The notes under the pieces are model-generated. The model ran no database searches, was not told the origin of the DNA, and saw only the letters and a list, made by a program, of their open reading frames with translations. The position numbers and the translations under genes are program-made. A stretch of 52,975 nucleotides of DNA from an uncultured Erysipelotrichaceae bacterium (lineage in GTDB: Bacteria; Bacillota_I; Bacilli_A; RFN20; CAG-449), in the NCBI GenBank assembly GCA_964456095.1, contig CAYVZF010000001.1, forward strand, positions 4,889-57,863. Direction: 5' to 3'. Shown piece by piece: positions 1,813 through 44,069 of the stretch (position 1 is the first letter of the stretch; each line of letters begins with the position of its first letter).

Positions 1813-1938
1813 ATTTTCCTCCGTGAGTAATTATTTAAAATTAACTCTTAAATACAATATGAAAAATTATAACTAAAAATATTTTGAAAATATGTTATAT
1901 CAACTACATTTTTTATTCATTTTCATATTATATTTCAA

Positions 1939-2715: not shown

Positions 2716-2772
2716 ACCTCCAACTCATATTTATTAAAAAGATTTTATTATATAAAATGGGTAAATTCAATG

Positions 2773-3819: not shown

Positions 3820-3941
3820 TGATTCTTGTAATATTTTTAAATCTTCTTTTGAAATATTATCTTTGATTTTTTTTAAATCTTTTAAATCATAAAGAATATA
3901 ATAATTAACTGGGTCTAGTTTAATAATATCAAAGCTATTTT

Positions 3942-4691: not shown

Positions 4692-4703
4692 TTTACCTAC
4701 CTC

Positions 4704-9491: not shown

Positions 9492-9493
9492 TT

Positions 9494-9928: not shown

Positions 9929-9931
9929 ATC

Positions 9932-11017: not shown

Positions 11018-11914
11018 CTACTTTGACATTTGCTTAAATGAAATTTTGTTTTCTTCAATATATTCTTCTTTTCTTTTGATCTTAATATAGGAAGATACAC
11101 CTATAAATATTGATACAATAAAGCAATATATATTAGTTCCATAAATAATAATTCTATCACTCGTTATTGCTTCATTTAATGGGACTTGCATTACATATTT
11201 GATAACAAATAATATTCTTATTAATGAATAAATACCAAATATTATAATTAAATAACAAAATAATTTTTTATAATTTTTAATTTTAATCGCGCTTGTAAAT
11301 AAGAATAATAGAATTGCAATATTTACAATAATGAATATTCCAATCCAAAAATTTCTTTCCATTATTTTTAACATATAAACTATGTATAATCCATCAAAAA
11401 GTATAGTAGATAGACATAACCAATATGATAAAATATTTGCTCTATAGAATGACAAATCCGTTTCTCTTTGGATTTTTTCTTCTTTATTTAATTCATTCCA
11501 TTCTTTTAAATTTTGTAATCTTCTAATTTTCGCTCTATAATTTGCATTACTTTTTTTGTACTTATAAATCAATTTATTTTTATATTCATTAAATTCATTT
11601 ATTATTTCTTGTTTTTTATCCTTACTAAATTTTTTGCCATTAATTTTTAAATCAATTACGTTTTCAGTCTCATTTAAATTTGAATCTTTATAAATAACTA
11701 TATTATCTATTTCGACATTTTGTTTTTTTGCCTTTACATTTTCTTTATATTGCATTCTAATTTTATTTATTTTTTTTCTTATTTTTAAAGGCAACCTTAT
11801 ATCAGGTTCTTCTAATATAGTAAGATTCTCAATTATTTTTTCATTTATTTTATTTTTTTCTATTAATAAATTTATTTTTTCAATTTTAGAAGGAATGTTT
11901 TTATCATTAATCAT
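11018..11914 (-). CDS. unassigned membrane protein with a Lys/Asn/Glu-rich N-terminal coiled-coil-like half
   Basis: 298 aa. Residues 1-155 or so are charged and low-complexity. The C-terminal half has about 4 TM segments. It abuts the ATPase gene with no gap. Confidence 0.5.
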   Translation of the reverse strand: MINDKNIPSKIEKINLLIEKNKINEKIIENLTILEEPDIRLPLKIRKKINKIRMQYKENVKAKKQNVEIDNIVIYKDSNLNETENVIDLKINGKKFSKDKKQEIINEFNEYKNKLIYKYKKSNANYRAKIRRLQNLKEWNELNKEEKIQRETDLSFYRANILSYWLCLSTILFDGLYIVYMLKIMERNFWIGIFIIVNIAILLFLFTSAIKIKNYKKLFCYLIIIFGIYSLIRILFVIKYVMQVPLNEAITSDRIIIYGTNIYCFIVSIFIGVSSYIKIKRKEEYIEENKISFKQMSK

Positions 11915-14612: not shown

Positions 14613-14630
14613 TTTACTTTTCCTCCTTTT

Positions 14631-15506
14631 TTAACCTTTAACTCCACCTAGATTAGCGCCTCTTGTAAAATATTTTTGTATATAAGGATAAATAACTAAT
14701 ACGGGTATAATTGAGCATATTATAATTGCGTATATCAAACTATCCGCAGCATATGATAGTTGAGCAATTGATGCTGATTCATCATAAAGTTTTTGATAGT
14801 TTTCAATTAATATTCTTAAATAAACTTGTAACGGTTGTTGTGTAGAATCTTTTAATAGCATTCTTGACCAATAATAACCATTCCATCTAGAAATCGCATA
14901 GAATAATGTAACTGTAGCAATTGATGCTTTTGACATAGGAATATAGATATTTAAAAATACTTGAAATTCATTTGAGCCATCGATTCTAGCAGCTTCTTCT
15001 ATTTCTTTTGGAACAGAAGAGAATGCATTTCTTAATAGAATAATATTATAAGCTTGAACACCAAATGCAATAACCATTCCCCACTTATTATCAACACCTA
15101 ATTCTACATAGTTAAGATATAAAGGAATCATACCTGCACTAAACCACATAGTAAATACTAAAAGGAAGTTCCACATTCTTTTACCTAATAATTTATCTTT
15201 AGATAAAACATATGCTCCCGTTAAAGAAATAAACATACTCCAAGCAGTACCAAATATTGTATAAAATAATGTATTTGTATAAGAAATCCAGAAACCTTTA
15301 TCTAATAAAACTGTTTTATATGCCTCAATAGTCAAATCTTTTGGAAAAAATACTATCGAGCCTGATTCATAAGCAATTTTACCACTTATAGAAACACTAA
15401 AAGCGTATAAAATTGGATACAAACACAAAATTGCAAATATCGTTACAAAAAAATACGAGAATATTCTAAATATAATTTCACTTTTACTTGATCTTTCCAT
15501 AAACAC
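14631..15506 (-). CDS. sugar ABC transporter permease (LplC-like)
   Basis: 291 aa, 6 TM. EAA loop EEAARIDGSNEFQVFLNIYIPMSKA. Confidence 0.85.
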   Translation of the reverse strand: MFMERSSKSEIIFRIFSYFFVTIFAILCLYPILYAFSVSISGKIAYESGSIVFFPKDLTIEAYKTVLLDKGFWISYTNTLFYTIFGTAWSMFISLTGAYVLSKDKLLGKRMWNFLLVFTMWFSAGMIPLYLNYVELGVDNKWGMVIAFGVQAYNIILLRNAFSSVPKEIEEAARIDGSNEFQVFLNIYIPMSKASIATVTLFYAISRWNGYYWSRMLLKDSTQQPLQVYLRILIENYQKLYDESASIAQLSYAADSLIYAIIICSIIPVLVIYPYIQKYFTRGANLGGVKG

Positions 15507-24535: not shown

Positions 24536-24654
24536 GCAAAAAAAAGCAATTGATCCATTATATTCTAGTACCGATAACGAAATTATAACGAAATATATTT
24601 GAATTATTTCGCAACTTGATGATATATTATAAATGTAATCACGTGGAGGAAAAA

Positions 24655-26472
24655 ATGACTTATATTACTTGTCAAGAAGCATCTAATAGATATGGCGTTT
24701 CACTAAGAAGAATTCAACAATTATGTAAAACAAATAAAATAAGAGGTGCAAAAAAAGAAGGGAAATCTTGGATGATTCCTGATGATTTTAATTATTCATC
24801 AACTCATCAAAAAAAGAAAAAACCTTTACCTATCGGCATCTCTGATTTTAAAAAAGCAACATCAGAATACTATTATGTTGATAAAACATTATTAATTCGT
24901 GATTTTTTAGATAGTAAACCTCAAGTATCATTATTTACAAGACCACGACGCTTTGGCAAAACTTTAACAATGGATATGCTTAGAGTTTTTTTTGAAAAAA
25001 CAAATGAAGATACATCAATCTATTTTAAAGATAAATTCATTTGGTCATGTGGAATAAAATACACTTTACATCAAGGACAATACCCAGTCATATTTTTAAC
25101 TTTTAAAGATATCAAATGCAAGAATTGGGAAGAAACCTATAATAAAATATGTAAATTAATAGCATTAGAATTTTTACGTCATAACGAACTTGAAACAAGT
25201 TCAAAACTAAATGAATATGAAAAAGAACAATATATTAATTTATCTAGGAATAACGCTACAGAAGTCGATTATCAAATGGCTTTACAAATTCTTTCCTTGC
25301 TACTTTATAAACATTATGGTAAAGACTGTATAATTATTATCGATGAATATGATATACCTATTGAACAAGGTTATGTATCTGGTTTCTATGACAAAACTAT
25401 TGATTTTATGAGAAACTTCTTTTCAGGTGGTCTAAAAGATAATACGTATTTAGCATTCGGCTTTTTAACAGGCATTTTAAAGGTTGCAAAAGAAAGTATT
25501 TTCAGTGGATTAAATAATTTAAAAATAAATTCTATTCTTGACGAAAATTATAGTGAGTATTTTGGCTTTACAAAAGAAGAAGTTATTAAAATGCTAGAAT
25601 ACTATGATGTTAAAAATAAATACCAAGAAATATGTTCGTGGTATGATGGATATATTTTTGGGAATACAGAAATATTTAATCCGTGGTCAGTAATTAATTA
25701 TATTTCTAACAATTGTTTCCCAAAAGCATTTTGGTTTTCTACAGGTAGCAACGATATTATTGGAGAAATAATATCAACATCATCAGATGAAACAATTATT
25801 AATCTACAAAAACTATTAATAGGAGAAAAAATAACAACATATATTGATACAAATGTTATTTATCCGGAAGTTATTACTAGTGCGCACAGCATTTATAGTT
25901 TTTTATTAGTTGCGGGTTATTTGAAAATAGACAAAACTTATCCTCAAGACGATGGAAACTATATGTGCGATGTAACTATTCCAAACAAAGAAATTAAATT
26001 TGTTTATGAAAAAGAAGTACTTAAAAAAACAGGAAAAACAAATATTGCTATTTTAATTCAACAAGCTATATTTCAAAAAGATATAAATAAACTTCAAAAT
26101 CTTTTAGAGCAATTTATGATTGAATCAATTTCTTATCATGATGGTTCAAATGAAAGTTTTTATCATGGAATGATGTTAGGATTATGTGCAATTTTAAGTA
26201 ATAAATATCACGTAAGATCTAATCAAGAATCAGGAGATGGTCGTTTTGACATACAGTTATATCCAGAAAACAAAAGTAATCCTGGTTTTATATTTGAATT
26301 AAAAAAAGCAAAAAATATTAAAGAATTAAAATCTCTAGCAAATATTGCTCTTAATCAAATAGAAACAAACCATTATGATGCACAAATGAAAAAAGATGGA
26401 GTTAATGAAACAATTAAAATCGGTATAGCATTTCATGGAAAACATGTGTCAATAAAAAGTATAAAAGGTTAA
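24655..26472 (+). CDS. HTH - AAA-ATPase - PD-(D/E)xK nuclease-fold protein (AAA_35/PDDEXK_9-type family)
   Basis: Start placed at ATG 24655 (RBS GGAGGA at 24645-24650) rather than the TTG at 24616. The N-terminal excisionase/MerR-like HTH is ITCQEASNRYGVSLRRIQQLCKTNKIRGAKKEGKSWMIP. P-loop RPRRFGKTLTMDM, Walker B IIIDEYD, and C-terminal ESGDGRFDIQLY...GFIFELKKAK. Confidence 0.75.
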   Translation: MTYITCQEASNRYGVSLRRIQQLCKTNKIRGAKKEGKSWMIPDDFNYSSTHQKKKKPLPIGISDFKKATSEYYYVDKTLLIRDFLDSKPQVSLFTRPRRFGKTLTMDMLRVFFEKTNEDTSIYFKDKFIWSCGIKYTLHQGQYPVIFLTFKDIKCKNWEETYNKICKLIALEFLRHNELETSSKLNEYEKEQYINLSRNNATEVDYQMALQILSLLLYKHYGKDCIIIIDEYDIPIEQGYVSGFYDKTIDFMRNFFSGGLKDNTYLAFGFLTGILKVAKESIFSGLNNLKINSILDENYSEYFGFTKEEVIKMLEYYDVKNKYQEICSWYDGYIFGNTEIFNPWSVINYISNNCFPKAFWFSTGSNDIIGEIISTSSDETIINLQKLLIGEKITTYIDTNVIYPEVITSAHSIYSFLLVAGYLKIDKTYPQDDGNYMCDVTIPNKEIKFVYEKEVLKKTGKTNIAILIQQAIFQKDINKLQNLLEQFMIESISYHDGSNESFYHGMMLGLCAILSNKYHVRSNQESGDGRFDIQLYPENKSNPGFIFELKKAKNIKELKSLANIALNQIETNHYDAQMKKDGVNETIKIGIAFHGKHVSIKSIKG

Positions 26473-26707: not shown

Positions 26708-26763
26708 TTATTTTAGATAGGAAAAAGAATTATTTTAATACCTATTAAAAAGTAGTGGTGAAA

Positions 26764-27309
26764 ATGAAAAAACAAAACAAAAAGAAAATATATGTTGTCG
26801 TTACTCAAACAGGAACAATATTATCGAGAATATTAAAATGTATCACTCATAACAAATACAATCACGCTTCAATCGCACTAGATGAAAATCTTAATGAAAT
26901 GTATTCATTTGGTAGAAAGCAAGCTTATAATCCTTTTTGGGGTGGATTTGTTAGAGAATCGCCAAAGTTCGGCACTTTCAAAAGATTTAAAAAAACAATT
27001 TCTAAAATTATAGAATTTGAAATAGATGAAGAAAAATATAATTATATAAAAGAAAAATTACATAGTATGAATGAAAACAACAGCCAATACCATTACAATT
27101 ATAAAGGCTTATTTGTTGCATGGTTTGGAAAAAAACTAACAAGGAAAAACTATTATTATTGTTCTGAATTTGTAAGAGAAATCGTTTTAGATGGTGATGT
27201 TGTACCAGATGATTTCTTTGGTAATATCACTCAACCAATTGATTTTTTAAAAATTCCAAATTCTAAAATCATTTATACAGGAATTTTAAAAGATTTTGCT
27301 AAATGTTAA
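26764..27309 (+). CDS. YiiX/YaeF-like permuted papain-fold (NlpC/P60 superfamily) hydrolase
   Basis: 181 aa from ATG 26764 (the ORF track starts at GTG 26755). His-before-Cys arrangement: KYNHASIAL ... YYYCSEFVREI, resembling the C92 family signature SHVGI ... YCSELV. Confidence 0.45.
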   Translation: MKKQNKKKIYVVVTQTGTILSRILKCITHNKYNHASIALDENLNEMYSFGRKQAYNPFWGGFVRESPKFGTFKRFKKTISKIIEFEIDEEKYNYIKEKLHSMNENNSQYHYNYKGLFVAWFGKKLTRKNYYYCSEFVREIVLDGDVVPDDFFGNITQPIDFLKIPNSKIIYTGILKDFAKC

Positions 27310-27354
27310 AAAAATCATATTTTGTAGAAGACTCTACTTAATATGATTTTTTTA

Positions 27355-29556
27355 TTAATATACTATTTTAATCGCCGCAATAGACATTCCTTTACTTGAG
27401 CTACATACATAATATGAGCCAGCATCTAAAGATGTTTTTAGTTCAGTTTGTTTTGTAATCGGATCAAATGAATATTCACTAGAACCTTTAATAACTATCG
27501 TTCTTTCATCAGAAGTATTATTACTTTTTGCATAAATATATACTTTCGCAGACTTAGTTAAAGTAAATTTAATTGAACGACTACTTTCATTTCCTGCACC
27601 ACCTAAATCAACTACTTGCGTATAAGATGAGTCAAATGATTTAAAACTATCATCTTCTTTAATACTAATTGTTTTCTCGCTTGTCGCAGTTATTTCAAAA
27701 ATACCATGTTTTATATTTGAACTAATTTCACTTTCAACTTGTAAATCCGCGGCATTAAATAAAATCGTATCACCAACATTACTAGTTTCGCTATTTTTGC
27801 TTTCTGATGAAATATATTCACTATAATTTTCACTACTATTTATCGAGCTATTTAATTCATTATCATCTTTTGATGTGCTAACTGATAAAGGACTATTTTT
27901 ACATATGCCAGCATATTTTACGCAGTCAATTTTAGCTTGTTCTGCAGAAGTAAGGTAAGTAACATCTGTTACTTTATTAACTGAATCATAATAGAAATAT
28001 GATGAATCTGTATCAAATTTTGTATTAAATGAATTTGAGTTTGAAACATTTTTTGTTCTATCAGTTACTTCTGTACCATTGTTGGTCCCAGAACAATATT
28101 TAAATTTATTATTAAATGACTTAACAACTGCATTAGATTGAGTAACTATTGGATTGGAAGTACTTTCAAAATAATTATATTCAGAAAGAACATATGCGTT
28201 TGCTCTTATCGACATCGCGGTACCTGATATTTTATAATAGTAATTATTATACATATGCATATTTGCTTGTCTACCTAAAGGTAAACGAGATTTACAACCA
28301 TTATAATAATTATGATGGAAAGTTATTTTATTTGATAATTGAGAATCTCCTCCACCAACAAGACCTGTTTTATGACAATTATTATAATTATTATATGAAA
28401 TAGTAACATTTGAACATTGTTTCATATCTGTTGCACCATCACCATTTCCTTTATCTTGTTCAGGAGTTCTATCTAAATAATTTTTACCAGCATTAAATAC
28501 ATTGTTATGAATCCAAATATATTGGGTACCTTGTGTATCGCTGCTTTTATCAAATGATGATCCTTCAATCGCACATGCATCTTCTGGATAATCAGTAAAT
28601 GTTAAGTTTCTTACTTCAACATATTTACTATTTTTAATTGACATACCCCATTGGAATATTTCTGCATCTTCTCCTACACCTTCAATAGTAAGACCACCAG
28701 TTGAATTAGAGAAAAAACACATATTCCAATAAGAATTATCACCATCATCTTTATTAGATAAATTATTTATATCAGTAATACCTAATGCATCATCTCTAGT
28801 ATATGTCTTTTTATCTTGATCATAGCTTCTAGTAGAAATTCTACCTATTATTCTAATAATTAATGTTTTTGATTTAACACCATTTAAAATATTAACTATT
28901 CCTGTCTTACCATTATATGTAACTGTATTTTTTGTTTTGTCAGTTACATAAATAATATCTGCATTAGATTTAGGTGTACCATCATTGTTATATGCTCCAA
29001 CACCTTTAGAATTATTAAAGTGTGCATATCCAGATCTATCATAACTTGCAACACTAACATTATGCATTTCTATAACGCTATTTGAGGACGTTGTTACTTT
29101 AACATCATATAATCCCGATGCTATACCTAAAATATCAAATCTAGCTGTTTTATTATCTGAAGATAAATTTCTTACAAGTTCTTTATCAATACTTATATAT
29201 TTAGACGTTCCTACTAATTTATAAGATACTGTTGCCTTACTTGCATTTGAATCAAGCCATTCACCATATATACCTTCTGCAACTGTACCATATTTAGTAA
29301 ACGCTTTATCAACACTAACTTTATTTTCTGATGAAACAATAGAAGATTCACTTGATGAGATTAATTCATCACTACTAATATCAGATTCCATTTCAGATGA
29401 GATAACATTTTCATCACTATTTGTACTATTAATAACACTATTTTCACTTTCTACACTATCAGCATAAGAAGACAGATTATCATTACTAGAAACCGTAATA
29501 TCGCATCCAATTAGCATAAAAGTCATAGCAATTAAACATAAATTTCTCTTTTTCAT
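27355..29556 (-). CDS. PL1-family pectate lyase lipoprotein with an extra C-terminal module
   Basis: Start placed at ATG 29554-29556 (MKKRNLCLIAMTFMLIGC lipobox) rather than the TTG at 29571. Ser-rich linker. Matches the PL1 signature (Ca-binding Asp residues and the catalytic Arg region): GDGATDMKQCSNVTISYNNYNNCHKTGLVGGGD...ITFHHNYYNGCKSRLPLGRQANMHMYNNYY. The last ~130 aa are an unassigned beta-rich module. Confidence 0.75.
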   Translation of the reverse strand: MKKRNLCLIAMTFMLIGCDITVSSNDNLSSYADSVESENSVINSTNSDENVISSEMESDISSDELISSSESSIVSSENKVSVDKAFTKYGTVAEGIYGEWLDSNASKATVSYKLVGTSKYISIDKELVRNLSSDNKTARFDILGIASGLYDVKVTTSSNSVIEMHNVSVASYDRSGYAHFNNSKGVGAYNNDGTPKSNADIIYVTDKTKNTVTYNGKTGIVNILNGVKSKTLIIRIIGRISTRSYDQDKKTYTRDDALGITDINNLSNKDDGDNSYWNMCFFSNSTGGLTIEGVGEDAEIFQWGMSIKNSKYVEVRNLTFTDYPEDACAIEGSSFDKSSDTQGTQYIWIHNNVFNAGKNYLDRTPEQDKGNGDGATDMKQCSNVTISYNNYNNCHKTGLVGGGDSQLSNKITFHHNYYNGCKSRLPLGRQANMHMYNNYYYKISGTAMSIRANAYVLSEYNYFESTSNPIVTQSNAVVKSFNNKFKYCSGTNNGTEVTDRTKNVSNSNSFNTKFDTDSSYFYYDSVNKVTDVTYLTSAEQAKIDCVKYAGICKNSPLSVSTSKDDNELNSSINSSENYSEYISSESKNSETSNVGDTILFNAADLQVESEISSNIKHGIFEITATSEKTISIKEDDSFKSFDSSYTQVVDLGGAGNESSRSIKFTLTKSAKVYIYAKSNNTSDERTIVIKGSSEYSFDPITKQTELKTSLDAGSYYVCSSSKGMSIAAIKIVY

Positions 29557-29665
29557 TTTAAAAAACCTCAATAAAAATTATACTATATATGATGTTATTA
29601 AACCAAATAAATCTTATTTATTTAATAACTATTTGTTTTAATAAATACATTGGAGGATTAATACT

Positions 29666-30877
29666 ATGAGCATTAAAAATAAATTTATCAAATATATTAA
29701 AATTGACACAATGAGCGATGAAAAGTCTTCATCATTTCCATCAACAGAATCTCAACTAGAATTTGGAAAAACATTAGTACAAGAATTACATAGTTATGGA
29801 ATAAATAATGCATATCAAGATGAATATGGCTACATATATGCAAGAATTGAAGGAGATAATTCTCTACCAAAAATAGGACTAATCGCTCACATGGATACTT
29901 CACCATCTTTAAAAGGTGGTAATTATGATGCAAGAATTATTAAAAATTATAAAGGGGAAAGAATCGATTTAAATAATAATTACTTTTTAGATACAAATAA
30001 ATTCCCATCATTAAAAAAACATATTGGACACGATTTAATTGTTACCGATGGTGATCATCTTTTAGGTGGTGACGATAAAGCAGGAGTAGCTATAATAATG
30101 GAATTATTAGAATTTTATATAAATAACCCTTCTATAAAGCACGCTCCTATCAGAATATGCTTTACTCCAGATGAAGAAATTGGTCAAGGTGCAAAATATT
30201 TTAGCACAACAAAAATGGATGCTGATATTGCATACACTTTAGATGGTTCTTCATATAATGATGTAAATTATGAAAACTTTAATGCAGCATCTGCTAAAAT
30301 AACAATAAATGGTGTTGGTGTCCATCCAGGAAGTGCCAAAGGAATAATGGTAAATGCATTATCTTTAGCATGTGAATTTAACTTTTTACTTCCAAAAGAT
30401 GAAGTACCCGAAAAAACAGAAGGGTATGAAGGTTTTTATCACTTAACAGATTTAAATGGTGATACAGAAAAAGCGGTTTTAGAATACATTTTACGTGATC
30501 ATGATATAGATAAATTAGATTTAAAAATAAAGAAAATTAAAGCAATCGCAGATGAAATACAAGAAAAATATCCAACATCTAAAGTCATAGTAGATATTAA
30601 AAATAGTTATAAAAACATGAAAACTTATTTTGATAAAGATAATAAAGCTGTAGAATTAATTAAAAATGCATACTTATCTCTAAATATTGAGCCTGTATTT
30701 ACTCCTATAAGAGGTGGAACTGATGGAGCAACAATAACATTTATGGGACTTCCTTGTCCTAACATTGGCGTAGGCGATTATAACTGTCATGGAAGATTTG
30801 AATATGTTTCTATAAATGAAATGGAAGAAGTATTTATGATAGTAAGAAATCTATTAGAAAATAAAGATTTGTATTAA
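29666..30877 (+). CDS. pepT: peptidase T (M20B tripeptidase)
   Basis: 403 aa. Motifs HMDTSP, GGDDKAG, TPDEEIGQGA and GGTDG. Confidence 0.9.
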   Translation: MSIKNKFIKYIKIDTMSDEKSSSFPSTESQLEFGKTLVQELHSYGINNAYQDEYGYIYARIEGDNSLPKIGLIAHMDTSPSLKGGNYDARIIKNYKGERIDLNNNYFLDTNKFPSLKKHIGHDLIVTDGDHLLGGDDKAGVAIIMELLEFYINNPSIKHAPIRICFTPDEEIGQGAKYFSTTKMDADIAYTLDGSSYNDVNYENFNAASAKITINGVGVHPGSAKGIMVNALSLACEFNFLLPKDEVPEKTEGYEGFYHLTDLNGDTEKAVLEYILRDHDIDKLDLKIKKIKAIADEIQEKYPTSKVIVDIKNSYKNMKTYFDKDNKAVELIKNAYLSLNIEPVFTPIRGGTDGATITFMGLPCPNIGVGDYNCHGRFEYVSINEMEEVFMIVRNLLENKDLY

Positions 30878-30880
30878 AAA

Positions 30881-31237
30881 TTAAATAATACTAGATTCTC
30901 CATTATTATTTACAGTTATTATTTTTGAGCCGTTTTCATCTTCTATAATAAGATGAACTGGTTTGTTATATAAATCGTAATAGTGATATGCGTAATTAAT
31001 ATAATATTCATTATTATGTGGATTTTTAAACATTATCATTAAATATATTGTATTGTTTTCCTCATGCCAAATTGATTCTTCAATTTCATCACTTAAATAC
31101 ATTGATGTTTCTTTTACATATAAGGAATTATTATTTGATTTATCGAAAACACTAATCCCAACAAAAGCGATTGTACATAATATAAAAATAAAACCAAACG
31201 CTGCGATAGATCCTATTATTTTTTTTAAAAATGACAT
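30881..31237 (-). CDS. hypothetical N-terminally membrane-anchored protein
   Basis: 118-aa ORF with one N-terminal TM segment (IIGSIAAFGFIFILCTIAFVGISVF). No recognisable motif. Confidence 0.4.
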   Translation of the reverse strand: MSFLKKIIGSIAAFGFIFILCTIAFVGISVFDKSNNNSLYVKETSMYLSDEIEESIWHEENNTIYLMIMFKNPHNNEYYINYAYHYYDLYNKPVHLIIEDENGSKIITVNNNGESSII

Positions 31238-31713: not shown

Positions 31714-31721
31714 AATAATAT

Positions 31722-31804
31722 AAAAACCACCTCACACCTAGAGATAAGCTTAAGGCTGCTATCTTCCGATCCTGACCTGGTTCACCTCTCTAAATCGAGA
31801 TGGC
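31722..31804 (-). ncRNA. ffs: small (4.5S-type) signal recognition particle RNA
   Basis: The minus-strand sequence GCCATCTCGATTTAGAGAGGTGAACCAGGTCAGGATCGGAAGATAGCAGCCTTAAGCTTATCTCTAGGTGTGAGGTGGTTTTT contains the conserved domain IV core CCAGGUCAGG..CGGAAG..AGCAGCC. The 5' and 3' ends pair (CCATCTC/GAGGTGG, TAGAGA/TCTCTA). Confidence 0.8.
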
Positions 31805-31810
31805 TTTTTT

Positions 31811-33202: not shown

Positions 33203-33385
33203 AAAAAACGCCCTAAATTAATAGGACGGAAGTGACGTATTCCGCGGTGCCACCTATTTTGTGTTTGTTTAAACACCACCTTATTTTACTTTAACGCAGC
33301 AAACGAAAGGTTTCCCTTTATCTTCAAGGGTTGATTTCTATAAAAATAAATATTGATTTGCACCATCCATCAACTCTCTAAAAAA
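33203..33385 (-). promoter_or_regulatory. T-box leader (tRNA-sensing riboswitch) controlling serS
   Basis: On the minus strand, the AGAGAG / GGTGCAA stem I elements lie at about 33350-33379. The T-box sequence AGGTGGCACCGCGG is at 33242-33255. The terminator CGTCCTA-loop-TAGGGCG plus T6 is at 33203-33229, immediately upstream of the serS RBS. Confidence 0.8.
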
Positions 33386-33488
33386 TATTTAAATATACTT
33401 ATCCCTATCACTAGATTACTTGTATTCTATGAAAAACTAATTATTTTTTCAATAATCAATTAACTAAATTATTAAACACATATCATAT

Positions 33489-36113: not shown

Positions 36114-38126
36114 TTAAATATCTAAGTTCTTAACGAACTTTGCATTTTCCCTAATAAAATCTTTTCTTGGTTCAACTCTTTCGCCCATTAATTCATCAAA
36201 TATTTGATCAGCTTCAATCGCGTCAGACATTTTTACTCTTATCATTTTTCTTTGTTCAGGATCCATTGTTGTTTCCCATAATTGTTCTGCATCCATTTCA
36301 CCAAGACCTTTATAACGTTGTATTTTTAATCTAGATGCAATTTGAGGTCCTAATTTTTTCTTTAAAGCTTCAAGTTGTTCATCATTATAACAGTAATAAT
36401 CTCTGTTACCTCTACTTGCTTTATAAAGTGGTGGTTGAGCTATATAAACAAATCCATTTTCAATGAGTGGTCTCATATATCGATAGAAGAATGTTAATAA
36501 CAAAATTCTAATATGTGATCCATCAACATCAGCATCGGTCATAATTACTACTTTATGATAACGGATCTTTGTAATATCAAAATGTTCACCATTTTTTTCA
36601 TATCCACCGCCGATAGCAATAATCATATTACCGATTTCAGCGTTTTCAAATACTCTTTTCATTTGAGCCTTTTCAACGTTTAATATTTTACCCCTCAATG
36701 GTAAAATCGCTTGTGTTTCTCTATCTCTACCATTTTTTGCAGAACCACCTGCTGAATCTCCCTCAACAATGTAAAGTTCACATTTTGTTGGATCTGTAGA
36801 AGCACAGTCCGCTAATTTACCAGGCAAAGAAGTAAGTTCTAATCCAGAGCCTTTTCTAACTGTTTCACGTGCCTTTTTAGCGGCAAGTCTTGCATTTGAA
36901 GCTAAATTAATTTTATTCATAATTAATTTTGCTACATTTGGATTTTCTTGTAAGAATCTATCTAATTGACTAGAGAATACACTCGATACGATTTTTCTAA
37001 CTTCTGAATTACCTAACTTACCTTTTGTTTGTCCTTCATATTGAGGATTAGGGTGTTTAATAGATATAATCGCAGTTATTCCTTCAAGAGTATCATCTTG
37101 TGTATAATTATCATCATTTTCTTTTAAAAATTTATTATTTTTAGCATATGCATTAAGAACTCTTGTTAAAGCCATACGGAATCCTTCTTCATGAGTTCCT
37201 CCATCTGCAGTACGAATATTATTACAGAATGAATAAATATTCGCGGTATATGTATCGTTATATTGTAAAGCTATTTCAACAACAACATCTTGTTCTTTAC
37301 CTTCACAATAAATTACCTCTTCACTCATAGCAATTTTATTTTTATTAAGATATTGAACATATTCTTTAACTCCACCTTTATAGCAGAATTCATCTTTAGA
37401 GCCAGGTAAAACACCTTCTTGAACACTCATAACTTTTCTATGGTCTTCAGTAATAATTCTAACACCTTTATTTAAGAAAGCCATTTGGCGAATTCTATCT
37501 CTAATAGTATTATAGTTAAAAGTTACTGTATCTTGGAATATAGTTGGATCTGGTTGAAAAGTAACGATTGTTCCTGTTGTATCAGTATCACCTATTCTTT
37601 TTAATGGTATAGCGACATTTCCACCATTTTCAAATCTTATTACGTGGATACCACCTTCTTTATGAACTTCAACTTCTACCCATGTTGATAACGCATTAAC
37701 AACAGATGCACCAACGCCATGAAGTCCACCAGATACTTTGTATCCTCCACCTTCACCAAATTTACCACCTGCGTGAAGAACTGTATATACTGTTTCAACC
37801 GCACTTTTACCTGTTTTTTCTACAACACCAACTGGAATACCACGTCCATTATCTTTTACAGTACATGAACCATCTTCATTAATAATTACGTGTATTGTAT
37901 CACAATAACCCGCCAAAGCTTCATCAATCGCGTTATCAACAATTTCCCATACACAATGATGAAGACCATCAAATGATGTAGTACCAATATACATACCAGG
38001 TCTTTTTCTAACAGCTTCTAATCCTTCAAGTACTTGAATATTCTTTTCAGTATATTCAGCATCAGCTTTTTCTTCTTCAGGAATTAGATTTTGCGTTTCT
38101 TTTTCTAAAACTTCTTTTTCATCCAT
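36114..38126 (-). CDS. gyrB: DNA gyrase subunit B
   Basis: 670 aa. GHKL ATPase EIVDNAIDE, Toprim [11 protein letters not shown], and [12 protein letters not shown]. Confidence 0.97.
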
Positions 38127-39211: not shown

Positions 39212-39421
39212 CTACTCAATTATAAATTCACGATTATCAATTTTAACAATATCACCAGGTCTTATTTTTCTACCTCTTCTTTTATCAATCTCATTGTTAA
39301 TTAAAATATTAACATCTGTCGAAAGAAAATACTTTGCTTCTCCACCTGTAGAAATGAAATCAGCAAGTTTTAAAAATTGACCAAGAGTGATATATTCAGT
39401 TGTAATTTTAATTTTTTCCAT
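39212..39421 (-). CDS. yaaA: S4-domain RNA-binding protein YaaA
   Basis: 69 aa. The S4-like sequence ITLGQFLKLADFISTGGEAK...NNEIDKRRGRKIRPGD sits in the canonical position upstream of recF. Confidence 0.8.
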   Translation of the reverse strand: MEKIKITTEYITLGQFLKLADFISTGGEAKYFLSTDVNILINNEIDKRRGRKIRPGDIVKIDNREFIIE

Positions 39422-39454: not shown

Positions 39455-39483
39455 ATTTTAGCATAGAAGTTAAAAAAATTCAA
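39455..39483 (-). promoter_or_regulatory. sigma-70-type promoter of yaaA-recF-gyrBA
   Basis: On the minus strand: TTGAAT (39478-39483), a 17-nt spacer, then TAAAAT (39455-39460). A GGAGAG RBS precedes the yaaA ATG. Confidence 0.5.
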
Positions 39484-39696
39484 ATATTTATATAACTTTA
39501 GTTATATAAGAATCAAAATTTTATTAACCAAAATTATTATTAAAATAGCGTATAAAATAAAGTTGATTTATTGAAATTCAAGAAATATTAGATAATTATT
39601 ATTATGTAGTTATTAAATTATTAGAAAATCTTTTATATGCAAAAACAAAATAGTATTTTATATACTAATTAGCATCATCATAAAAACATTGTTTTT

Positions 39697-42600
39697 CTAT
39701 AATTTTTCATAAAATTCAATAACACTTTTTGAAACTTTTAAACTATCTTTATCTAATTTATTATACAGATATAAATTTTTAACATCTGTTATTCTTGATA
39801 AAGCAACATAAATTTGTCCACTCTCCCATCCACATGGATCTAAATTAGCTCTTTCAAAAGTTTGTCCTTGACTTTTATGAATAGTAATTGCATACGCAAG
39901 TTTTACAGGAATTTGTATAATTACACCTATTTTATTTTGAGTTATTGTTCCATTTTCATTTAAAATCGGTTCATCAACATATGTAAACGGGTTTTCATAT
40001 ATTCTTACAATTTCATTTTGTTTATCAATAAATACATCGATGTAATTATTACCACATGTAACAACAGTTCCTAAACTACCATTTTGATATCTTAAATTAC
40101 TATCATTACAAAGCATCATTACTCTACATCCTGGTTTTAGAATAATTGTATCTTCTATGTTTAAATTATTAGAAATAATTGTATCTTTATCATACTTTGC
40201 TTTATAAATATGCTCTCTAGTTATTAAATTTGTAATATTTTTTAAGTTAATATTGTTAACTGTATTATTTTTCGCGTGAATTTCAATAGCATTTTCAAGT
40301 GGTATTTTAGAACAATTATTATTAATATAATCTATTGAATCTTCTATATTAATACCTTTTCTAGCATTATTTAATGCATTAATGAATTCAATATTATTTT
40401 GTCTACATATGTCTTTTAATATAATTTTATTAAAATTAAATTCTTCCCATTTATTTGATTCAAAAGCAAATCCATCTACAAAATTTGAAAAAATCTTTTT
40501 TAGAATACTTTTTTCTGCTTCCGTCATAACAGGTGGTAATTGAAAGAAATCTCCACAGACAATGACTTGTATTGGTTTATTCCTTTCATTTTGACATGCT
40601 TCAATCACTCTCATTATGTAATGAAATATATCTATTCTACACATTGATATTTCATCAATAATTATTGTATCGAAATTTATTATCGTACCCTTATTAATTG
40701 GAAATTTTAACGATATAATACTTGGAATGATAGGTATATTAAAAGCTTTGTGGATAGTAATACCTCTATCATAATTTGCCGCGGCAATACCTGTTGGAGC
40801 GCATATTAAATATGTTTTATTAGTCTTTTTTAAATAATCAATATATTTATTAATCAAAAATGTTTTACCTGTACCAGCTTCTCCAGTTAAAAATACATTT
40901 TGTCCACTTGTTAATATATCAAAATATTTTTTCTTTTCTTCGTTTAATCCTTCAGAGATTTTATTAACTATTTCATTATCTTCAATTATTTTTATATTTT
41001 CAAAATATTGATTGATATTTATACATAATTTTTCAAATTCTTTAACAAATGATGAATTATTTTTGTGTCTTCCTGATAAAATAAACAAATTCTTTTTTGC
41101 TCTTGTAAAAGCGACATATGACAAACGTCTTTCACTTTCATCTAAAGTATCATCGGAAGAAATAAGCTCATAATCAAAAATAATTATATTGTCTGCTTCA
41201 AGACCTTTTGATCCATGTGCAGTCATTAAATGAACACATTCTTCATTATTCCTATCACTTTCAGTTAAAAAATCTAAAACGGCTGACCCTAAAAAATCAT
41301 GAATAGAGTATGTAGAATTTAATTGTTCTTCATCAATGATGTTTTCTATAAATGTAGATAATCTTTTTATTTCACTATTATCTTCAAATTCTTCATCTTT
41401 AAAACAATTTCTTTCTAGTATTTTATATTCACTAATTACAATTTGAATAATCTCTGATACTTTTTTTGATTTTGATAAAATTACTTTTTTTATTATTTCA
41501 TTTGCTGATATAAAACTCTCAATCTTTTTATTATTATGACTTTTAAGAAATTCAATTGGATCAATATTCACATTTAGATATTTTTCAATTTCTTTTTCGT
41601 TTATACCTAAACTTTCTATATTGTTAATGTTATACAAAGTAAACATATTTTGATTAATTGCAAAAGTTAAATAATTAACTATCAAATTAACATTTTCAGT
41701 TATATTTGTTTTTTTACTTGAAGAACTTCTTGAATCAACAAAAGGAATATTGTTTTTGTTCAGTTCTTTTTTTAAATTAGAAAAACAATAATTATTTCTT
41801 GCTATAACAAAAATATCTTTGTAATCAAATTTTAAATTATTATGTAAATGTTCTATTATTCTACAAATATTATAATACTGTTCATTTTTATTAAAAAAAC
41901 TATGATAAACAACATTATCACCTTCGATATTACTGAAACCAACAGATTTTTTTTGTTCAATTCTATTTTTATTATTTTTTATTAATTCATTTGATAAATT
42001 TATTATCCTATTCGTAGACCTATAATTTGTATTCATTATTATTGTTTTTAATTTTGGAAAATCTTTTTCTAAATCTTTAAGCAATATTTTCGGATTTGCA
42101 CCAATGAATTCATATATTGATTGATCAGGATCTCCAACAACAAATAAATTTTTATGATAAGAAGATAGAATTTTCATTATTTCATATGTTTCTGGAGTAG
42201 TGTCTTGAAATTCATCTACCATAACATATTTAAATTTTTTTTGTTCTTGAATTCTAATACTTTCATAATTATTTAATATATATAATGCTCCAAAAATTAG
42301 ATCATCAAAAAATAAAGCATTATTATTTCTGCATATTTCTAATATCTCATCTGCCCATTTATAACCTCTACCAAATGAAAACCGATCTATTTTACCAAAT
42401 ACATATTCAATATATGATTTATTACGATGCTTTAAATTTGAAATAATTTTTTTTAAATCACTTGCTTTATCAAGACTTTTCTTATTGTTTTTTTTAGATA
42501 TTTTTTCTAATAAAATACTTTCAGCATTATCATCAAATATTGTATATTCTTTATTTACTTTAGCATTTATTTTATCAATATTTTCATGTAAAAACTTATT

Positions 42601-42873
42601 ACAATATGAATGTATTGTAGATATATAACGGAAATCATTATTGCTATTTACTAGTTTAATAATTCTTTTTTTCATTTCATTTGCGGCTTTATTTGTATAT
42701 GTAATGCATAGAATATTATCACTTGATATATTTACATTTTCCAATAAATATGCATATCTATACGTTAAAGTCCTTGTTTTACCACTTCCAGGTGAAGCGA
42801 TGACTCGTATATAATGATCGCTTGCTAAAACAGCTTCTTTTTGCTCATTATTTAATTTTGTTAAATCAATCAT
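39697..42873 (-). CDS. dual helicase: N-terminal UvrD/Rep-type SF1A fused to C-terminal Pif1/RecD-type SF1B
   Basis: 1058 aa. N-terminal half: ASPGSGKTRT, YTNKAANEM, VMVDEFQDT, VVGDPDQSIYEF, NYRS, LMTAHGSKGLEADNIIIF and VAFTRAKKNLFIL. C-terminal half, starting at about aa 660: LTGEAGTGKTF, CAPTGIAAAN, IIIDEISM, VCGDFFQLPPV, GCRVMMLCND, AITIHKSQGQTF and YVALSRI. GGAAGGAAAG RBS. Confidence 0.8.
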   Translation of the reverse strand: MIDLTKLNNEQKEAVLASDHYIRVIASPGSGKTRTLTYRYAYLLENVNISSDNILCITYTNKAANEMKKRIIKLVNSNNDFRYISTIHSYCNKFLHENIDKINAKVNKEYTIFDDNAESILLEKISKKNNKKSLDKASDLKKIISNLKHRNKSYIEYVFGKIDRFSFGRGYKWADEILEICRNNNALFFDDLIFGALYILNNYESIRIQEQKKFKYVMVDEFQDTTPETYEIMKILSSYHKNLFVVGDPDQSIYEFIGANPKILLKDLEKDFPKLKTIIMNTNYRSTNRIINLSNELIKNNKNRIEQKKSVGFSNIEGDNVVYHSFFNKNEQYYNICRIIEHLHNNLKFDYKDIFVIARNNYCFSNLKKELNKNNIPFVDSRSSSSKKTNITENVNLIVNYLTFAINQNMFTLYNINNIESLGINEKEIEKYLNVNIDPIEFLKSHNNKKIESFISANEIIKKVILSKSKKVSEIIQIVISEYKILERNCFKDEEFEDNSEIKRLSTFIENIIDEEQLNSTYSIHDFLGSAVLDFLTESDRNNEECVHLMTAHGSKGLEADNIIIFDYELISSDDTLDESERRLSYVAFTRAKKNLFILSGRHKNNSSFVKEFEKLCININQYFENIKIIEDNEIVNKISEGLNEEKKKYFDILTSGQNVFLTGEAGTGKTFLINKYIDYLKKTNKTYLICAPTGIAAANYDRGITIHKAFNIPIIPSIISLKFPINKGTIINFDTIIIDEISMCRIDIFHYIMRVIEACQNERNKPIQVIVCGDFFQLPPVMTEAEKSILKKIFSNFVDGFAFESNKWEEFNFNKIILKDICRQNNIEFINALNNARKGINIEDSIDYINNNCSKIPLENAIEIHAKNNTVNNINLKNITNLITREHIYKAKYDKDTIISNNLNIEDTIILKPGCRVMMLCNDSNLRYQNGSLGTVVTCGNNYIDVFIDKQNEIVRIYENPFTYVDEPILNENGTITQNKIGVIIQIPVKLAYAITIHKSQGQTFERANLDPCGWESGQIYVALSRITDVKNLYLYNKLDKDSLKVSKSVIEFYEKL

Positions 42874-42900
42874 TAAAACTTTCCTTCCATGTTTTTAATA

Positions 42901-42936
42901 ATAAAAAAAGGATAAAACTATATAAGTAATACCCTT
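42901..42936 (-). terminator. intrinsic terminator after dnaN
   Basis: On the minus strand, AAGGGTA - 14-nt loop - TATCCTT (7-bp stem with one G-U pair) is followed by T7. It lies between the dnaN stop and the helicase RBS. Confidence 0.5.
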
Positions 42937-42947
42937 AATAACATTTA

Positions 42948-44069
42948 TCAATAATAAGAACGAACAGGAGTAACTATTTGAACGATATCATTAGAATTAG
43001 GAGATGTTACTCTAAAAGCAGACATTTCACCTGCAAAAGATAATATAACATCATCACATTGACATGCTTTAATAGCGTCTGTAACATAATTAACATTAAA
43101 TGAAATATCAAATCTATTTCCAGCATAACGGAAATCATTAATCTTTTCATTTGCAGAACCGATTTGATCGGATTTTGATGATATTTCAATTTCATTTTCT
43201 GTTAATGATAATTTAACAATATTTTCTCTTTCAATAGCTAGTAATGAAACACGTGATATCGCAGAAATAAATTTTTCTGAACTTATTTGTAAAACATATG
43301 GATATGAATCAGGAATCATTCTACTTGTTTTAGGGAAATCACCATTAACTAATCTAGAATAAATTTTAGTATTTTGATATGTAAAGACAATTTTTCTTTC
43401 AGAAATTGTCATAGATACATCTCCATCTTCAACTAATTTAGCAACTTCAACCATTGTTTTAGTAGGAATATTAGCTTCAAAATTATGTGGTTCATTTGTT
43501 TGATATATTTTTTTAGATAATCTAAATGAATCAGTTGCAACAAATTCCATTGAGCAATCATTAGCTTTAACATTTATTGCAGTTAATACAGGTCTAACTT
43601 CTTTTGTTGATGCAGCAAAAGCAGTTTGAGAAACGATTTTTTTGAAATCATTTGAATTAAAAGTAACTGTATCACCAGAAATCTCTAAATCTAAATCAGG
43701 ATAATCTTCAACTCTCATAGAATTTAATTTAAAATCAGATTTTTCATCACTAATTTTACATAATACAGAATCAATTATTTCAATTGTTACATAACTACCT
43801 TCTAATTTTCTTATAATTTCTAACAAGAATTTAGATGATATTAATGTAGCGCCTTTTTCATATGAAGAAATAATATATTTATCATCTTCTTTAATAGGAA
43901 TTATTGAAACTATTGTTAAATCATTATTAGAACCTGTTATAGATAATGATTCATCATTCATTTCAAATTTATAATTTAAATATGCTGGAGTAGGTGATTT
44001 TTGTCCTATTGCAATACCTACAATATTTAAGACTTTTAATAAACGAAGTCTATCGATAGTAATTTTCAT
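42948..44069 (-). CDS. dnaN: DNA polymerase III beta sliding clamp
   Basis: 373 aa. Three-domain clamp-like sequence, immediately downstream of dnaA. Confidence 0.92.
   Translation of the reverse strand: MKITIDRLRLLKVLNIVGIAIGQKSPTPAYLNYKFEMNDESLSITGSNNDLTIVSIIPIKEDDKYIISSYEKGATLISSKFLLEIIRKLEGSYVTIEIIDSVLCKISDEKSDFKLNSMRVEDYPDLDLEISGDTVTFNSNDFKKIVSQTAFAASTKEVRPVLTAINVKANDCSMEFVATDSFRLSKKIYQTNEPHNFEANIPTKTMVEVAKLVEDGDVSMTISERKIVFTYQNTKIYSRLVNGDFPKTSRMIPDSYPYVLQISSEKFISAISRVSLLAIERENIVKLSLTENEIEISSKSDQIGSANEKINDFRYAGNRFDISFNVNYVTDAIKACQCDDVILSFAGEMSAFRVTSPNSNDIVQIVTPVRSYY

Follow-up and report, generated by a model that had tools for sequence, protein, structure and literature searches.

RecBCD, which acts against linear phage DNA, pairs two helicase motors of opposite polarity: RecB, an SF1A motor moving 3'-5', and RecD, an SF1B motor moving 5'-3', start from a DNA end and run the same way, each on one of the two complementary strands. 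More generally, UvrD/PcrA-type SF1A motors move 3'-5' and Pif1-type SF1B motors move 5'-3'; to our knowledge, the RecBCD type of pairing is the only well-understood logic for combining the two, and we know of no characterised defence system made only of helicase domains. A UvrD-type ATPase, GajB, is used in defence by the Gabija system. In the ARG-centric systems, which are predicted anti-ADP-ribosylation conflict systems, helicases are named only as an occasional add-on, and the published template has a calcineurin-like phosphatase together with REase-fold effectors that are tied to helicases (Iyer et al. 2022, PMC9503650).

In the 53-kb stretch of DNA analysed here (the window), one polypeptide contains two complete helicases, the first of UvrD/PcrA type and the second of Pif1 type. 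Its ORF runs from an ATG to a single stop at its end, with the SF1A core, the linker and the SF1B core in this order (Table 1). An earlier note on this DNA, made from the letters, had read two full SF1 motif sets in one ORF, a linker of about 40 aa between the motors, and no nuclease, primase or relaxase domain. Pfam, solved structures and a fold search in which PcrA/UvrD and Bacteroides Pif1 are separate top matches all agree with the two motif sets; the linker spans residues 601-642; and scans with Pfam and NCBIfam found none of these three domains in the 1058-aa protein. Of the profiles that the note had proposed, UvrD-helicase, UvrD_C, PIF1 and AAA_30 match and set the domain boundaries. 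The worry that the ORF might be two genes or a frameshift artefact proved unfounded: the frame runs on without a break in 11 independent clusters, which differ in sample and assembler, and residues 585-665 contain no Met. In the viral structure library, no protein covers both halves. The AlphaFold model of the full chain has a pTM of 0.47, and its inter-domain geometry is unreliable.

Table 1. Features of the dual-helicase locus (window coordinates)
Feature	Coordinates	Strand	Basis or remark
Dual helicase ORF, UvrD/PcrA-type + Pif1-type	39697..42873	(-)	1058 aa; full-length homologues aligned
SF1A UvrD/PcrA-like core, residues 1-600	41074..42873	(-)	Pfam, PcrA 1pjr alignment, fold match
Walker A of motor 1, residues 26-33, ASPGSGKT	42775..42798	(-)	invariant in family alignment
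A7 homopolymer	41461..41467	(-)	-1 frameshift there gives split allele of same species
Linker, residues 601-642	40948..41073	(-)	variable, no internal Met
SF1B Pif1 core, residues 643-1058 and stop	39697..40947	(-)	Pfam PIF1, Pif1 structures, fold match
Walker A of motor 2, residues 664-671, GEAGTGKT	40861..40884	(-)	invariant in family alignment
dnaN, flank	42948..44069	(-)	84% identical to sister lineage
Intrinsic terminator of dnaN	42901..42936	(-)	7-bp stem, inner 3-bp helix, -9.2 kcal/mol, then U7
Ribosome-binding site GGAAGGAAAG	42879..42888	(-)	5 nt upstream of ATG
Inserted segment, approximate	39525..42890	(-)	~3.4 kb: RBS, gene, ~170 bp 3' tail; boundaries imprecise
Palindrome TTATATAACTAAAGTTATATAA upstream of yaaA	39488..39509	(-)	kept in sister lineage; ancestral, outside insert
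Promoter-like site for yaaA: TTGAAT, 17 nt, TG-n-TAAAAT	39455..39483	(-)	consensus match only; ancestral spacer part
yaaA, S4-like, 69 aa, flank	39212..39421	(-)	window annotation

The N half belongs to the SF1A superfamily, as motifs I-VI are present (Walker A ASPGSGKT, DEFQDT, VGDPDQSIYEFIGA, NYRS, HGSKGLE and YVAFTRAK) and both Pfam families score above their gathering cut-offs: UvrD-helicase at residues 7-270 (E 1.3e-68, 232 bits against 23) and UvrD_C at residues 279-599 (E 2e-33, 116.6 bits against 25.6). It aligns with PcrA (1pjr) over residues 9-621 of 724 (E 4e-65) and has in common with PcrA, UvrD and Rep all SF1A motifs and the four-subdomain fold. However, it differs from them by scores far under the equivalog cut-offs (297 bits against 911 for the PcrA model TIGR01073 of NCBIfam) and by its fusion to a second helicase; the C-terminal tail of PcrA (~622-724, ~100 aa) is missing, and the Pif1 half stands there instead. 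Motif III reads YEFIGA, whereas PcrA, UvrD and Rep have Y(R/G/S)WRGA (YRWRGA in the UvrD/PcrA consensus), and thus the coupling of motor 1 may be atypical.

The C half carries GEAGTGKT, APTGIAAAN, DEISM, CGDFFQLPPV, RQ, TIHKSQGQT and YVALSRI. Its earlier description as a Pif1/RecD-type motor holds for Pif1 but not for RecD: solved structures of bacterial Pif1 match the C half over its entire length (E 5e-50), against E 4e-5 for RecD2, and the RecD and RecD2 equivalogs of NCBIfam reach 77 and 101 bits against cut-offs of 310 and 500. Pfam PIF1 covers residues 643-828 (E 6e-30, 104.9 bits, cut-off 25.9), with AAA_30 matching as well, and the Pif1 signature region of motifs II-III (D-x-F...IQV..GDFFQLPPV) aligns without the 'FGG' segment of 8bns. 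As in the Bacteroides, Sulfurihydrogenibium, Deferribacter and Thermus structures, all SF1B motifs and GDFFQLPPV are there, and identity to Bacteroides Pif1 is ~32% in the fold-search alignments. Known bacterial Pif1 proteins stand alone or carry WYL, HRDC/HTH or similar modules, whereas this one follows a UvrD-type helicase.

Purifying selection acts on both halves, while the linker evolves almost neutrally (dN/dS 0.165 for the N half, 0.189 for the C half and about 0.75 for the linker). Every motif of both motors is invariant across 11 homologous clusters at about 50-60% identity, and the two halves are equally conserved (62% vs 63%); pairwise identity falls to 35% in the linker, which is likely a flexible tether. 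In the same species there is also an allele that is split at the A7 tract into P0124 (478 aa) and P0123 (509 aa), which argues for the dual helicase being dispensable.

The pairing of a UvrD-like SF1A motor with an SF1B motor of presumably opposite polarity makes the protein RecBCD-like by analogy. RecBCD, however, is built of separate subunits held by RecC, with the RecB nuclease and Chi recognition, whereas the dual helicase is one chain with neither nuclease nor scaffold, and its second motor is of the Pif1 clade instead of RecD, as the NCBIfam RecD score shows. It has no PD-(D/E)XK domain, the AddA and RecB models matching the motor region only, and its flanks are dnaN and yaaA, with no RecC or AddB in the window annotation. 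Both helicase families also occur in one chain in P0159 (1349 aa) and P0295 (1419 aa, Spirochaetota, named 'UvrD-helicase domain-containing protein'), uncharacterised singletons that are not homologous to the dual helicase as a whole; there the same Pif1 clade comes first, in reverse order, and is fused to UvrD and a C-terminal PD-(D/E)XK nuclease. This single-chain RecBCD/AddA-like layout argues for a pairing of the two motors. GajB is the best PADLOC match to the N half (PDLC00114, 253 bits, profile positions 3-629 of 635), but it is without the Pif1 domain that the dual helicase has, and GajA, the OLD-family ATPase/TOPRIM nuclease of Gabija, is absent both beside the gene and in the relatives' loci; the match reflects general UvrD similarity.

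Candidates from PADLOC and from conjugation were rejected. A PDC-S68 protein should match the profile of ~1200-1270 positions over its full length, and only positions 688-936 of 1273 match the Pif1 half (79.6 bits), the C-terminus of the profile matching a PD-(D/E)XK-like protein instead; P0178, P0159 and P0240 are not members either. As to the relaxase-helicases TraI/TraA, TraA_Ti covers residues 639-1037 only, with 66 bits against 590, and no relaxase Pfam family matches.

In a set of 1.84 billion representatives, the architecture makes up a single cluster at 50% identity. The earlier note had conceded that it might prove a common, already characterised family; it is very rare, and no earlier description of a UvrD-Pif1 fusion, a single-chain bipolar SF1A/SF1B protein or PDC-S68 was found in the searchable literature. 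The rarity may explain why it escaped description. Among the matches listed for GTDB species representatives there are only standalone PcrA/UvrD proteins at 34% identity or less, and no record in 50,697 phage records, 72,556 plasmids and IMG/VR covers at least 80% of the protein. In JGI metagenome contigs, the back-translated family-specific invariant peptide NILCITYTNKAA gave 0 matches and a profile-guided scan gave only generic PcrA-like ones.

The gene lies between dnaN and yaaA, as first read, and the ORF positions agree. Nothing stands between these two genes in the sister lineage (L087-L089, L091) or the outgroup (L117-L119), where they are 164-195 bp apart; GyrB of the sister lineage is 95% identical, RecF 65% and YidC 62%. 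Comparison of these loci indicates that the gene is a lineage-specific insertion between an ancestral dnaN terminator, homologous to that of the empty-site sister lineage, and an ancestral yaaA promoter. No integrase, transposase or target-site duplication was found at the insertion, and its flanking repeats do not go beyond the 8-mers that AT-rich DNA yields by chance; its exact boundaries cannot be set because the divergence from the empty-site lineages is too large. There is no compositional anomaly (GC3 is 0.106, the same as in the flanking genes), and thus, with the large core-gene divergence, horizontal transfer and relocation within the clade look alike. The gene had been called insulated. 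Its two presumed insulators exist, although a simple scan for terminators missed the hairpin at 42901-42936, but the empty-site sister has them as well; since the terminator and the yaaA promoter and palindrome are ancestral, the new gene was not insulated by design. Nor is the 275-bp spacer AT-only, as had been claimed: it is 84% A+T, with 44 G/C bases. Only about 25 nt lie between the ribosome-binding site and the U-run of the terminator, too few for a separate promoter, and transcription is probably by read-through from dnaA-dnaN. The position beside dnaN appears to be incidental, and for annotation the lesson is that even a striking place at the origin can be so.

Whether the gene always sits next to dnaN, as the earlier note had asked, can be answered from its relatives: the nine other loci of the family all lie away from dnaN. 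Those that are better resolved sit among defence or conflict genes, including ADP-ribosylglycohydrolase/Macro/Nudix/PD-(D/E)XK modules, an association drawn from few short metagenomic contigs of which only L001 and L002 are large. L001 has Upx-like, PDC-S69-like nuclease, GIY-YIG, ARH and Cas9 genes. In L002, ARH and Macro precede the helicase, which is followed by an AbiU-like gene, PDC-M33ABC in complete form (445/180/182 bits) and a Dcm methylase; in L003, the helicase opens an unbroken one-strand run with AAA, DUF2130 and Macro, in which no gap exceeds 25 nt. L004 has Metallophos, DUF2130, ARH, Macro and NUDIX before the helicase and CAT after it, and in L092 the helicase stands between AAA and IceA. 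The contexts of L093, L111 and L112 are uninformative. PHROGs gave no phage signal for unannotated neighbours except an AAA ATPase. In the window, which is part of the genome only, there is no second PcrA and no nuclease or other effector beside the helicase gene.

We lean towards a rare accessory dual-motor helicase from the defence/conflict gene pool of low-GC gut Bacilli, and not origin or replisome equipment. The earlier note had offered two readings. The reading as a self-contained helicase, accessory or of defence type, that came to this locus fits the lineage-specific insertion and the relatives in defence/ADP-ribose conflict loci; a bipolar translocase at origin forks does not fit the empty site in sister and outgroup, the lack of any relative near dnaN, the failed PcrA cut-off and the frameshifted allele. 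A defence function is suggested by association, and the motor polarities and their bipolar cooperation are assumed from family membership. We propose the following: a gene that arrived alone between the dnaN terminator and the yaaA promoter would supply two SF1 motors, predicted to be catalytically competent, on a fast-evolving tether of ~40 aa. The motors, of opposite polarity, would each bind one of the two complementary strands at a duplex end or fork and move the same way along the DNA, like RecB plus RecD, and the outcome would be fast, processive, nuclease-free unwinding and protein stripping. The targets may be DNA that is foreign or aberrant, for example the ends of linear phage or plasmid DNA, or intermediates that are stalled or of the rolling-circle kind; a nuclease, where needed, could act in trans, for example from the PD-(D/E)XK/DUF2130 genes adjoining the relatives. 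A bolder and rather doubtful version is that the single-chain bipolar helicase works alone as a nuclease-free anti-phage or anti-plasmid system, in which it might run down invading ends or replication intermediates by unwinding, protein stripping or ATP draining. If true, this would add a new type of defence made of a single gene, and would offer a minimal model of RecBCD-style dual-motor translocation. The cooperation of opposite-polarity SF1 motors is understood mainly from the multi-subunit RecBCD, and a compact single-chain UvrD-Pif1 protein with both motors under selection would be a tractable minimal system for motor coordination. As its family is associated with defence islands and ADP-ribose conflict modules, the protein is also a new candidate for a part in the conflict between phages and bacteria.

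It is less probable still that the gene encodes an orphaned helicase from a conflict or repair module centred on ADP-ribose, whose partner genes would lie at other places in the genome. Together with ARH, Macro, Nudix and a PD-(D/E)XK nuclease, it would clear or bypass ADP-ribosylated DNA or proteins, or serve as an effector arm. ARH, Macro, NUDIX or DUF2130 occur in 5/9 of the relatives' loci, in varying order, with module orthology across loci (58-85%) comparable to that of the helicases, and L003 has its contiguous one-strand run; DUF2130 is listed in the PD-(D/E)XK superfamily. The relatives' loci combine an ADP-ribosylglycohydrolase, Macro, Nudix, a calcineurin-like phosphatase, a PD-(D/E)XK protein and the dual helicase, and L004 fits the published ARG-centric template (PMC9503650), although the relatives' Nudix is a bare 126-aa domain and not a Nudix-HTH regulator. 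The ARG-centric set, an ADP_ribosyl_GH core with a Nudix/WYL regulator or a phosphatase, is present in L002 and L004 and in part in L001, L003 and L113, and absent from the window. Against such a role, none of these genes is in the window, where the helicase is intact and alone, and the module is missing at L092, L093, L111 and L112; the published systems come from other phyla and do not specify this helicase, and the co-occurrence could be synteny inherited among related genomes instead of a functional link.

A housekeeping role, in which an accessory replicative helicase substitutes for or supplements PcrA by removing nucleoprotein blocks from the two template strands of a fork, is improbable. 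The gene adjoins dnaA-dnaN in the same orientation and is probably co-transcribed with them by terminator read-through, its N half is closest to PcrA, and the insertion appears to be retained across samples of the same species, as clusters of homologues have contigs of identical length; eukaryotic Pif1/Rrm3 are accessory fork helicases (PMC3113762). The empty sites, the relatives' locations away from dnaN, the PcrA score and missing tail, and the frameshifted allele of the same species speak against it, and the extreme rarity is unlike what a core function predicts.

Equally improbable is remnant cargo of a decayed ICE, plasmid or phage, a replication or transfer helicase with no current host role and heading to pseudogenisation: the insertion without partner genes, the frameshift in the A7 tract and the small unannotated ORFs and AAA ATPase around the helicases of L003, L092 and L093 would suit it, but integrase, relaxase, Rep protein and flanking repeats are all absent, the phage, plasmid and IMG/VR records hold no full-length match, the neighbours do not resemble PHROGs, and the window ORF is intact, with purifying selection acting on each half.

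The fusion helicase is a single chain with two complete, co-conserved SF1 motors, one of the UvrD family and one of the Pif1 family. Profile searches find both in tandem, as the earlier note had read from the motifs, and detect no nuclease, primase or relaxase family in the protein, which agrees with the absences recorded there. Geobacillus PcrA matches the N half over PcrA residues 9-621 of 724 (E 4e-65); thus, the full helicase core is present and the C-terminal ~100 residues of PcrA are absent. Over its whole length, the C half aligns with bacterial Pif1 helicases of known structure (8bns and 5ftb/5fhd, the latter over chain residues 6-397 of 433; all E ~5e-50), whereas the RecD2 structure reaches E 4e-5 at best; of the original label "Pif1/RecD-type", Pif1 therefore stands and RecD does not. 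In the structure prediction proposed as a check, an AlphaFold2 model from the family alignment (pLDDT 70, pTM 0.47) has PcrA/UvrD and, separately, Bacteroides Pif1 as its top matches. At the domain level, the protein belongs to the SF1A UvrD-like superfamily and the Pif1 family; it would work like PcrA/UvrD and bacterial Pif1 fused, and its conceptual likeness is to RecB plus RecD. Membership of named systems was rejected for PcrA (297 vs 911 bits, PcrA tail missing), RecD or RecD2 (scores below cut-offs), RecBCD/AddAB (no nuclease, no scaffold subunit), Gabija (no GajA), the PADLOC candidate system PDC-S68 (partial match only) and relaxase-helicases (no relaxase domain).

Assembly error does not explain the fusion, since the same unbroken architecture occurs in 11 clusters from different samples and assemblers (48-100% identity), every motif of both helicase sets is invariant across them, and residues 585-665 contain no Met from which Pif1 could be made on its own. 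This also settles the worry about a missed stop or two adjacent genes. Purifying selection acts on both motors, and the linker between them behaves as a fast-evolving tether (dN/dS from the closest pair, the relatives on L003 and L093; dS 0.25-0.34). Motif III of motor 1 reads YEFIGA where PcrA has YRWRGA (W259 to F, R260 to I), and all 11 family members share this F-I replacement of the W-R conserved in PcrA/UvrD/Rep. As W259 and R260 of PcrA link ATP hydrolysis to DNA, the tuning of motor 1 may differ, and its DNA coupling may be altered.

The architecture is extremely rare and uncharacterised. When 1.84 billion 50%-identity representatives were searched exhaustively with HMMER, one full-length cluster (representative P0006) came back, together with P0152, a fragment from a more distantly related fusion; the other top matches were Pif1 alone (about 40-50% identical to the C half) or PcrA-like proteins alone (33-40% identical to the N half). 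A protein with both halves scoring moderately would rank within the top 150, and the best 150 matches hold only two more with both families: P0159 (1349 aa; Pif1, UvrD, PD-(D/E)XK) and P0223 (765 aa; Pif1 and UvrD), apparently partial as its UvrD match ends near the C-terminus. No full-length match was found in 50,697 phage records, 72,556 plasmids, IMG/VR or JGI metagenome contigs, or among the matches listed from the GTDB representative scan, and the searchable literature holds no description of a UvrD-Pif1 single chain. P0159 has one analogue, P0295 (1419 aa, Spirochaetota), which also has a Cas4-like match. Both carry the reverse order, Pif1, UvrD, then PD-(D/E)XK nuclease, in one chain; by domain layout, this is a one-polypeptide RecBCD/AddA-like design, and it too seems uncharacterised and very rare. 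Other fusion partners of the same Pif1 clade are a Schlafen-type helicase (P0178), HRDC/HTH modules, DUF3857/transglutaminase, primase/MCM and exonuclease/WYL; Pif1 behaves as a generic motor joined to varied modules, as the literature proposed. In P0178 (1068 aa), a Schlafen group-3/DUF2075-type helicase (263-620) precedes Pif1 (655-1067), and the N part has weak AbiO/Nhi-like PADLOC matches.

Relatives of the fusion helicase are embedded in defence and conflict neighbourhoods. Neighbours recur between loci with identities of 58-68% for ADP-ribosylglycohydrolase (ARH), 85% for DUF2130, 50% for AAA and 85% for NUDIX, and the helicases of those loci are 57-72% identical to one another. The neighbours being orthologous, the family travels in a shared, rearranging accessory neighbourhood of bacteria of 25-29% GC. 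On contig L003, the helicase appears to share an operon with the AAA, DUF2130 and Macro genes; the order of the ARH, Macro, NUDIX, calcineurin-like phosphatase and DUF2130 genes varies by locus. The relatives' set of ARH, Macro, Nudix, calcineurin-like phosphatase, REase-fold protein and helicase matches the "ARG-centric" conflict systems predicted by Iyer and colleagues to counter viral ADP-ribosylation (PMC9503650), which these neighbourhoods resemble, here in low-GC Bacilli. PHROGs gave no phage character to the unannotated neighbours.

Features of the fusion gene, its window and its relatives' loci (window positions unless residues or a contig are named)
Feature	Position	Strand	Details
Fusion helicase ORF	39697-42873	minus	1058 aa, one uninterrupted frame
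UvrD-helicase domain	residues 7-270		profile search, E 1.3e-68
UvrD_C domain	residues 279-599		profile search, E 2e-33
PIF1 domain	residues 643-828		profile search, E 6e-30
AAA_30 domain	residues 648-784		profile search
N core			mean pairwise identity 62%; dN/dS 0.165
Linker	residues 601-642		mean pairwise identity 35%; dN/dS 0.75
Pif1 half			mean pairwise identity 63%; dN/dS 0.189
Motif III, UvrD-type half	42097-42138 (residues 246-259)		VGDPDQSIYEFIGA
A7 run, inside fusion gene	41461-41467		site of -1 frameshift in split allele
dnaA	44202-45587	minus	
dnaN	42948-44069	minus	
dnaN terminator	42901-42936		hairpin plus U7, -9.2 kcal/mol
22-bp palindrome	39488-39509; L088 ~8610-8632		TTATATAACTAAAGTTATATAA, just upstream of yaaA promoter-like site
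recF/gyrB overlap	38105-38126		22 nt
T-box leader	33219-33420	minus	upstream of serS, 123 bits
Small SRP RNA gene	31714-31809	minus	58 bits
618-aa protein	24616-26472	plus	AAA-ATPase_like N-terminal, PDDEXK_9 nuclease C-terminal domain
Glycan-degradation locus	100-23994; 27355-29571	mostly minus	
L001 (27.9 kb)	stretch with recurring neighbours 14340-15140		Upx-like protein, PDC-S69-like PD-(D/E)XK protein, GIY-YIG, ARH, Cas9
L002 (14 kb)	stretch with recurring neighbours 461-6049		ARH, Macro, then helicase, then AbiU-like, complete PDC-M33A/B/C candidate system (445/180/182 bits), Dcm methylase
L003	stretch with recurring neighbours 5811-11604	one strand	helicase, then AAA ATPase, DUF2130, Macro; contiguous
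L004	stretch with recurring neighbours 767-10001		calcineurin-like phosphatase, LRR, DUF2130, ARH, Macro, NUDIX, then helicase, then CAT
L092			AAA ATPase, then helicase, then IceA-type endonuclease
L113	stretch with recurring neighbours 1038-4585		NUDIX, then helicase
L093, L111, L112			uninformative

UvrD/PcrA-type motors move 3'-5' and Pif1-type motors 5'-3'. To our knowledge, the only well-understood reason to pair motors of such opposite polarity is RecBCD logic, in which the two motors run in one direction, each on its own strand of a duplex end or fork. We therefore favour, somewhat above an even chance, a RecBCD-like helicase with two motors and no nuclease, drawn from the accessory defence gene pool; the existence of the reverse-order chains P0159 and P0295 supports this logic. 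Motors 1 and 2 would engage the two strands at a duplex end or fork and travel together in one direction, the target would be foreign or aberrant DNA, and nucleases would be supplied in trans where present, such as DUF2130 in the relatives, a family listed under the PD-(D/E)XK superfamily (PMC3424549). We have moderate confidence in the conflict or defence role, and low to moderate confidence in the bipolar mechanism. A demonstration of bipolar unwinding or of autonomous defence would make the fusion helicase substantially more important. An unlikely reading is that it is the orphaned helicase arm of an ADP-ribose-centred module.

The window is an origin region: dnaA, dnaN, the fusion gene, yaaA, recF, gyrB and gyrA follow in this order on the minus strand, with rnpA and yidC running divergently on the plus strand, and cumulative GC skew is lowest at about 45-46 kb. 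The DNA comes from an uncultured, low-GC member of Bacilli, its closest named GyrB relatives (75-77% identity) being MAGs labelled Bacilli or Erysipelotrichaceae bacterium. In the sister lineage (identity to the window 95% for GyrB, 84% for DnaN, 79% for DnaA and 65% for RecF), four independent contigs read dnaN-195 bp-yaaA with no intervening gene, and the outgroup (GyrB 79%) reads dnaN-164 bp-yaaA. The empty site is thus ancestral, and the fusion gene is a lineage-specific insertion whose origin context is incidental. None of the nine other distinct loci of the family lies near dnaN; the gene does not always adjoin dnaN, and the idea of a translocase acting on origin forks is not supported. 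The other suggestion, a defence helicase that landed here, holds for the insertion and the relatives' surroundings, while its defence role is inferred. We are highly confident of the architecture, insertion and accessory status. A housekeeping fork-clearing helicase or PcrA substitute would suit the full PcrA-like core and the origin position, and with the site empty in sister lineage and outgroup we consider it improbable.

The dnaN terminator is homologous to that of the sister lineage (-10.7 kcal/mol), and the palindrome TTATATAACTAAAGTTATATAA and promoter-like site before yaaA are common to both. The gene therefore landed between a pre-existing terminator and promoter; the insulation described earlier is real in its elements and older than the gene, and the 275-bp spacer, said to be AT-only, measures 84% A+T. 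Only about 25 nt separate the terminator U-run from the RBS, so the fusion gene is probably transcribed by read-through from dnaA-dnaN. The palindrome is kept despite heavy intergenic divergence and may be an operator or other regulatory site for yaaA-recF-gyrB. No integrase was found, repeats at the flanks do not exceed chance, and the gene is not anomalous in composition (GC3 0.106, equal to that of the genes on either side). In another assembly of the same species, the gene is split into P0124 (478 aa) and P0123 (509 aa) on two contigs, which agrees with the gene being dispensable or, possibly, with assembly error; the A7 frameshift could be pseudogenisation, phase variation or assembly error. 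Decaying mobile-element cargo would fit such a split, and with both motors under purifying selection it is just as improbable as a housekeeping role.

Elsewhere in the window, RecF (367 aa) overlaps the gyrB start and the sister-lineage RecF (359 aa) stops 2 nt before gyrB, which indicates a short C-terminal extension in the window lineage. The T-box leader and small SRP RNA are ordinary and support the Bacillota assignment. Past serS/tadA, window 26755-31237 differs from sister contig L088 (17710-22013): L088 has a 187-aa and 738-aa pair plus chromate transporters, and the window has an M20 peptidase and an unrelated 738-aa pectate-lyase-like protein, with no similarity between the two 738-aa proteins despite equal length. 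The large glycan-degradation locus encodes alginate lyase, heparinase II/III-like, chondroitinase B-like and pectate-lyase-like enzymes and a GDSL esterase, with two ABC permeases, a MalK-type ATPase, an IclR regulator and an SDR; several of its large ORFs (570, 686, 694, 511 and 454 aa) have no Pfam match. Coding strand and GC skew flip in a short stretch at ~24-27 kb around the gene for the 618-aa AAA-ATPase_like/PDDEXK_9 protein.
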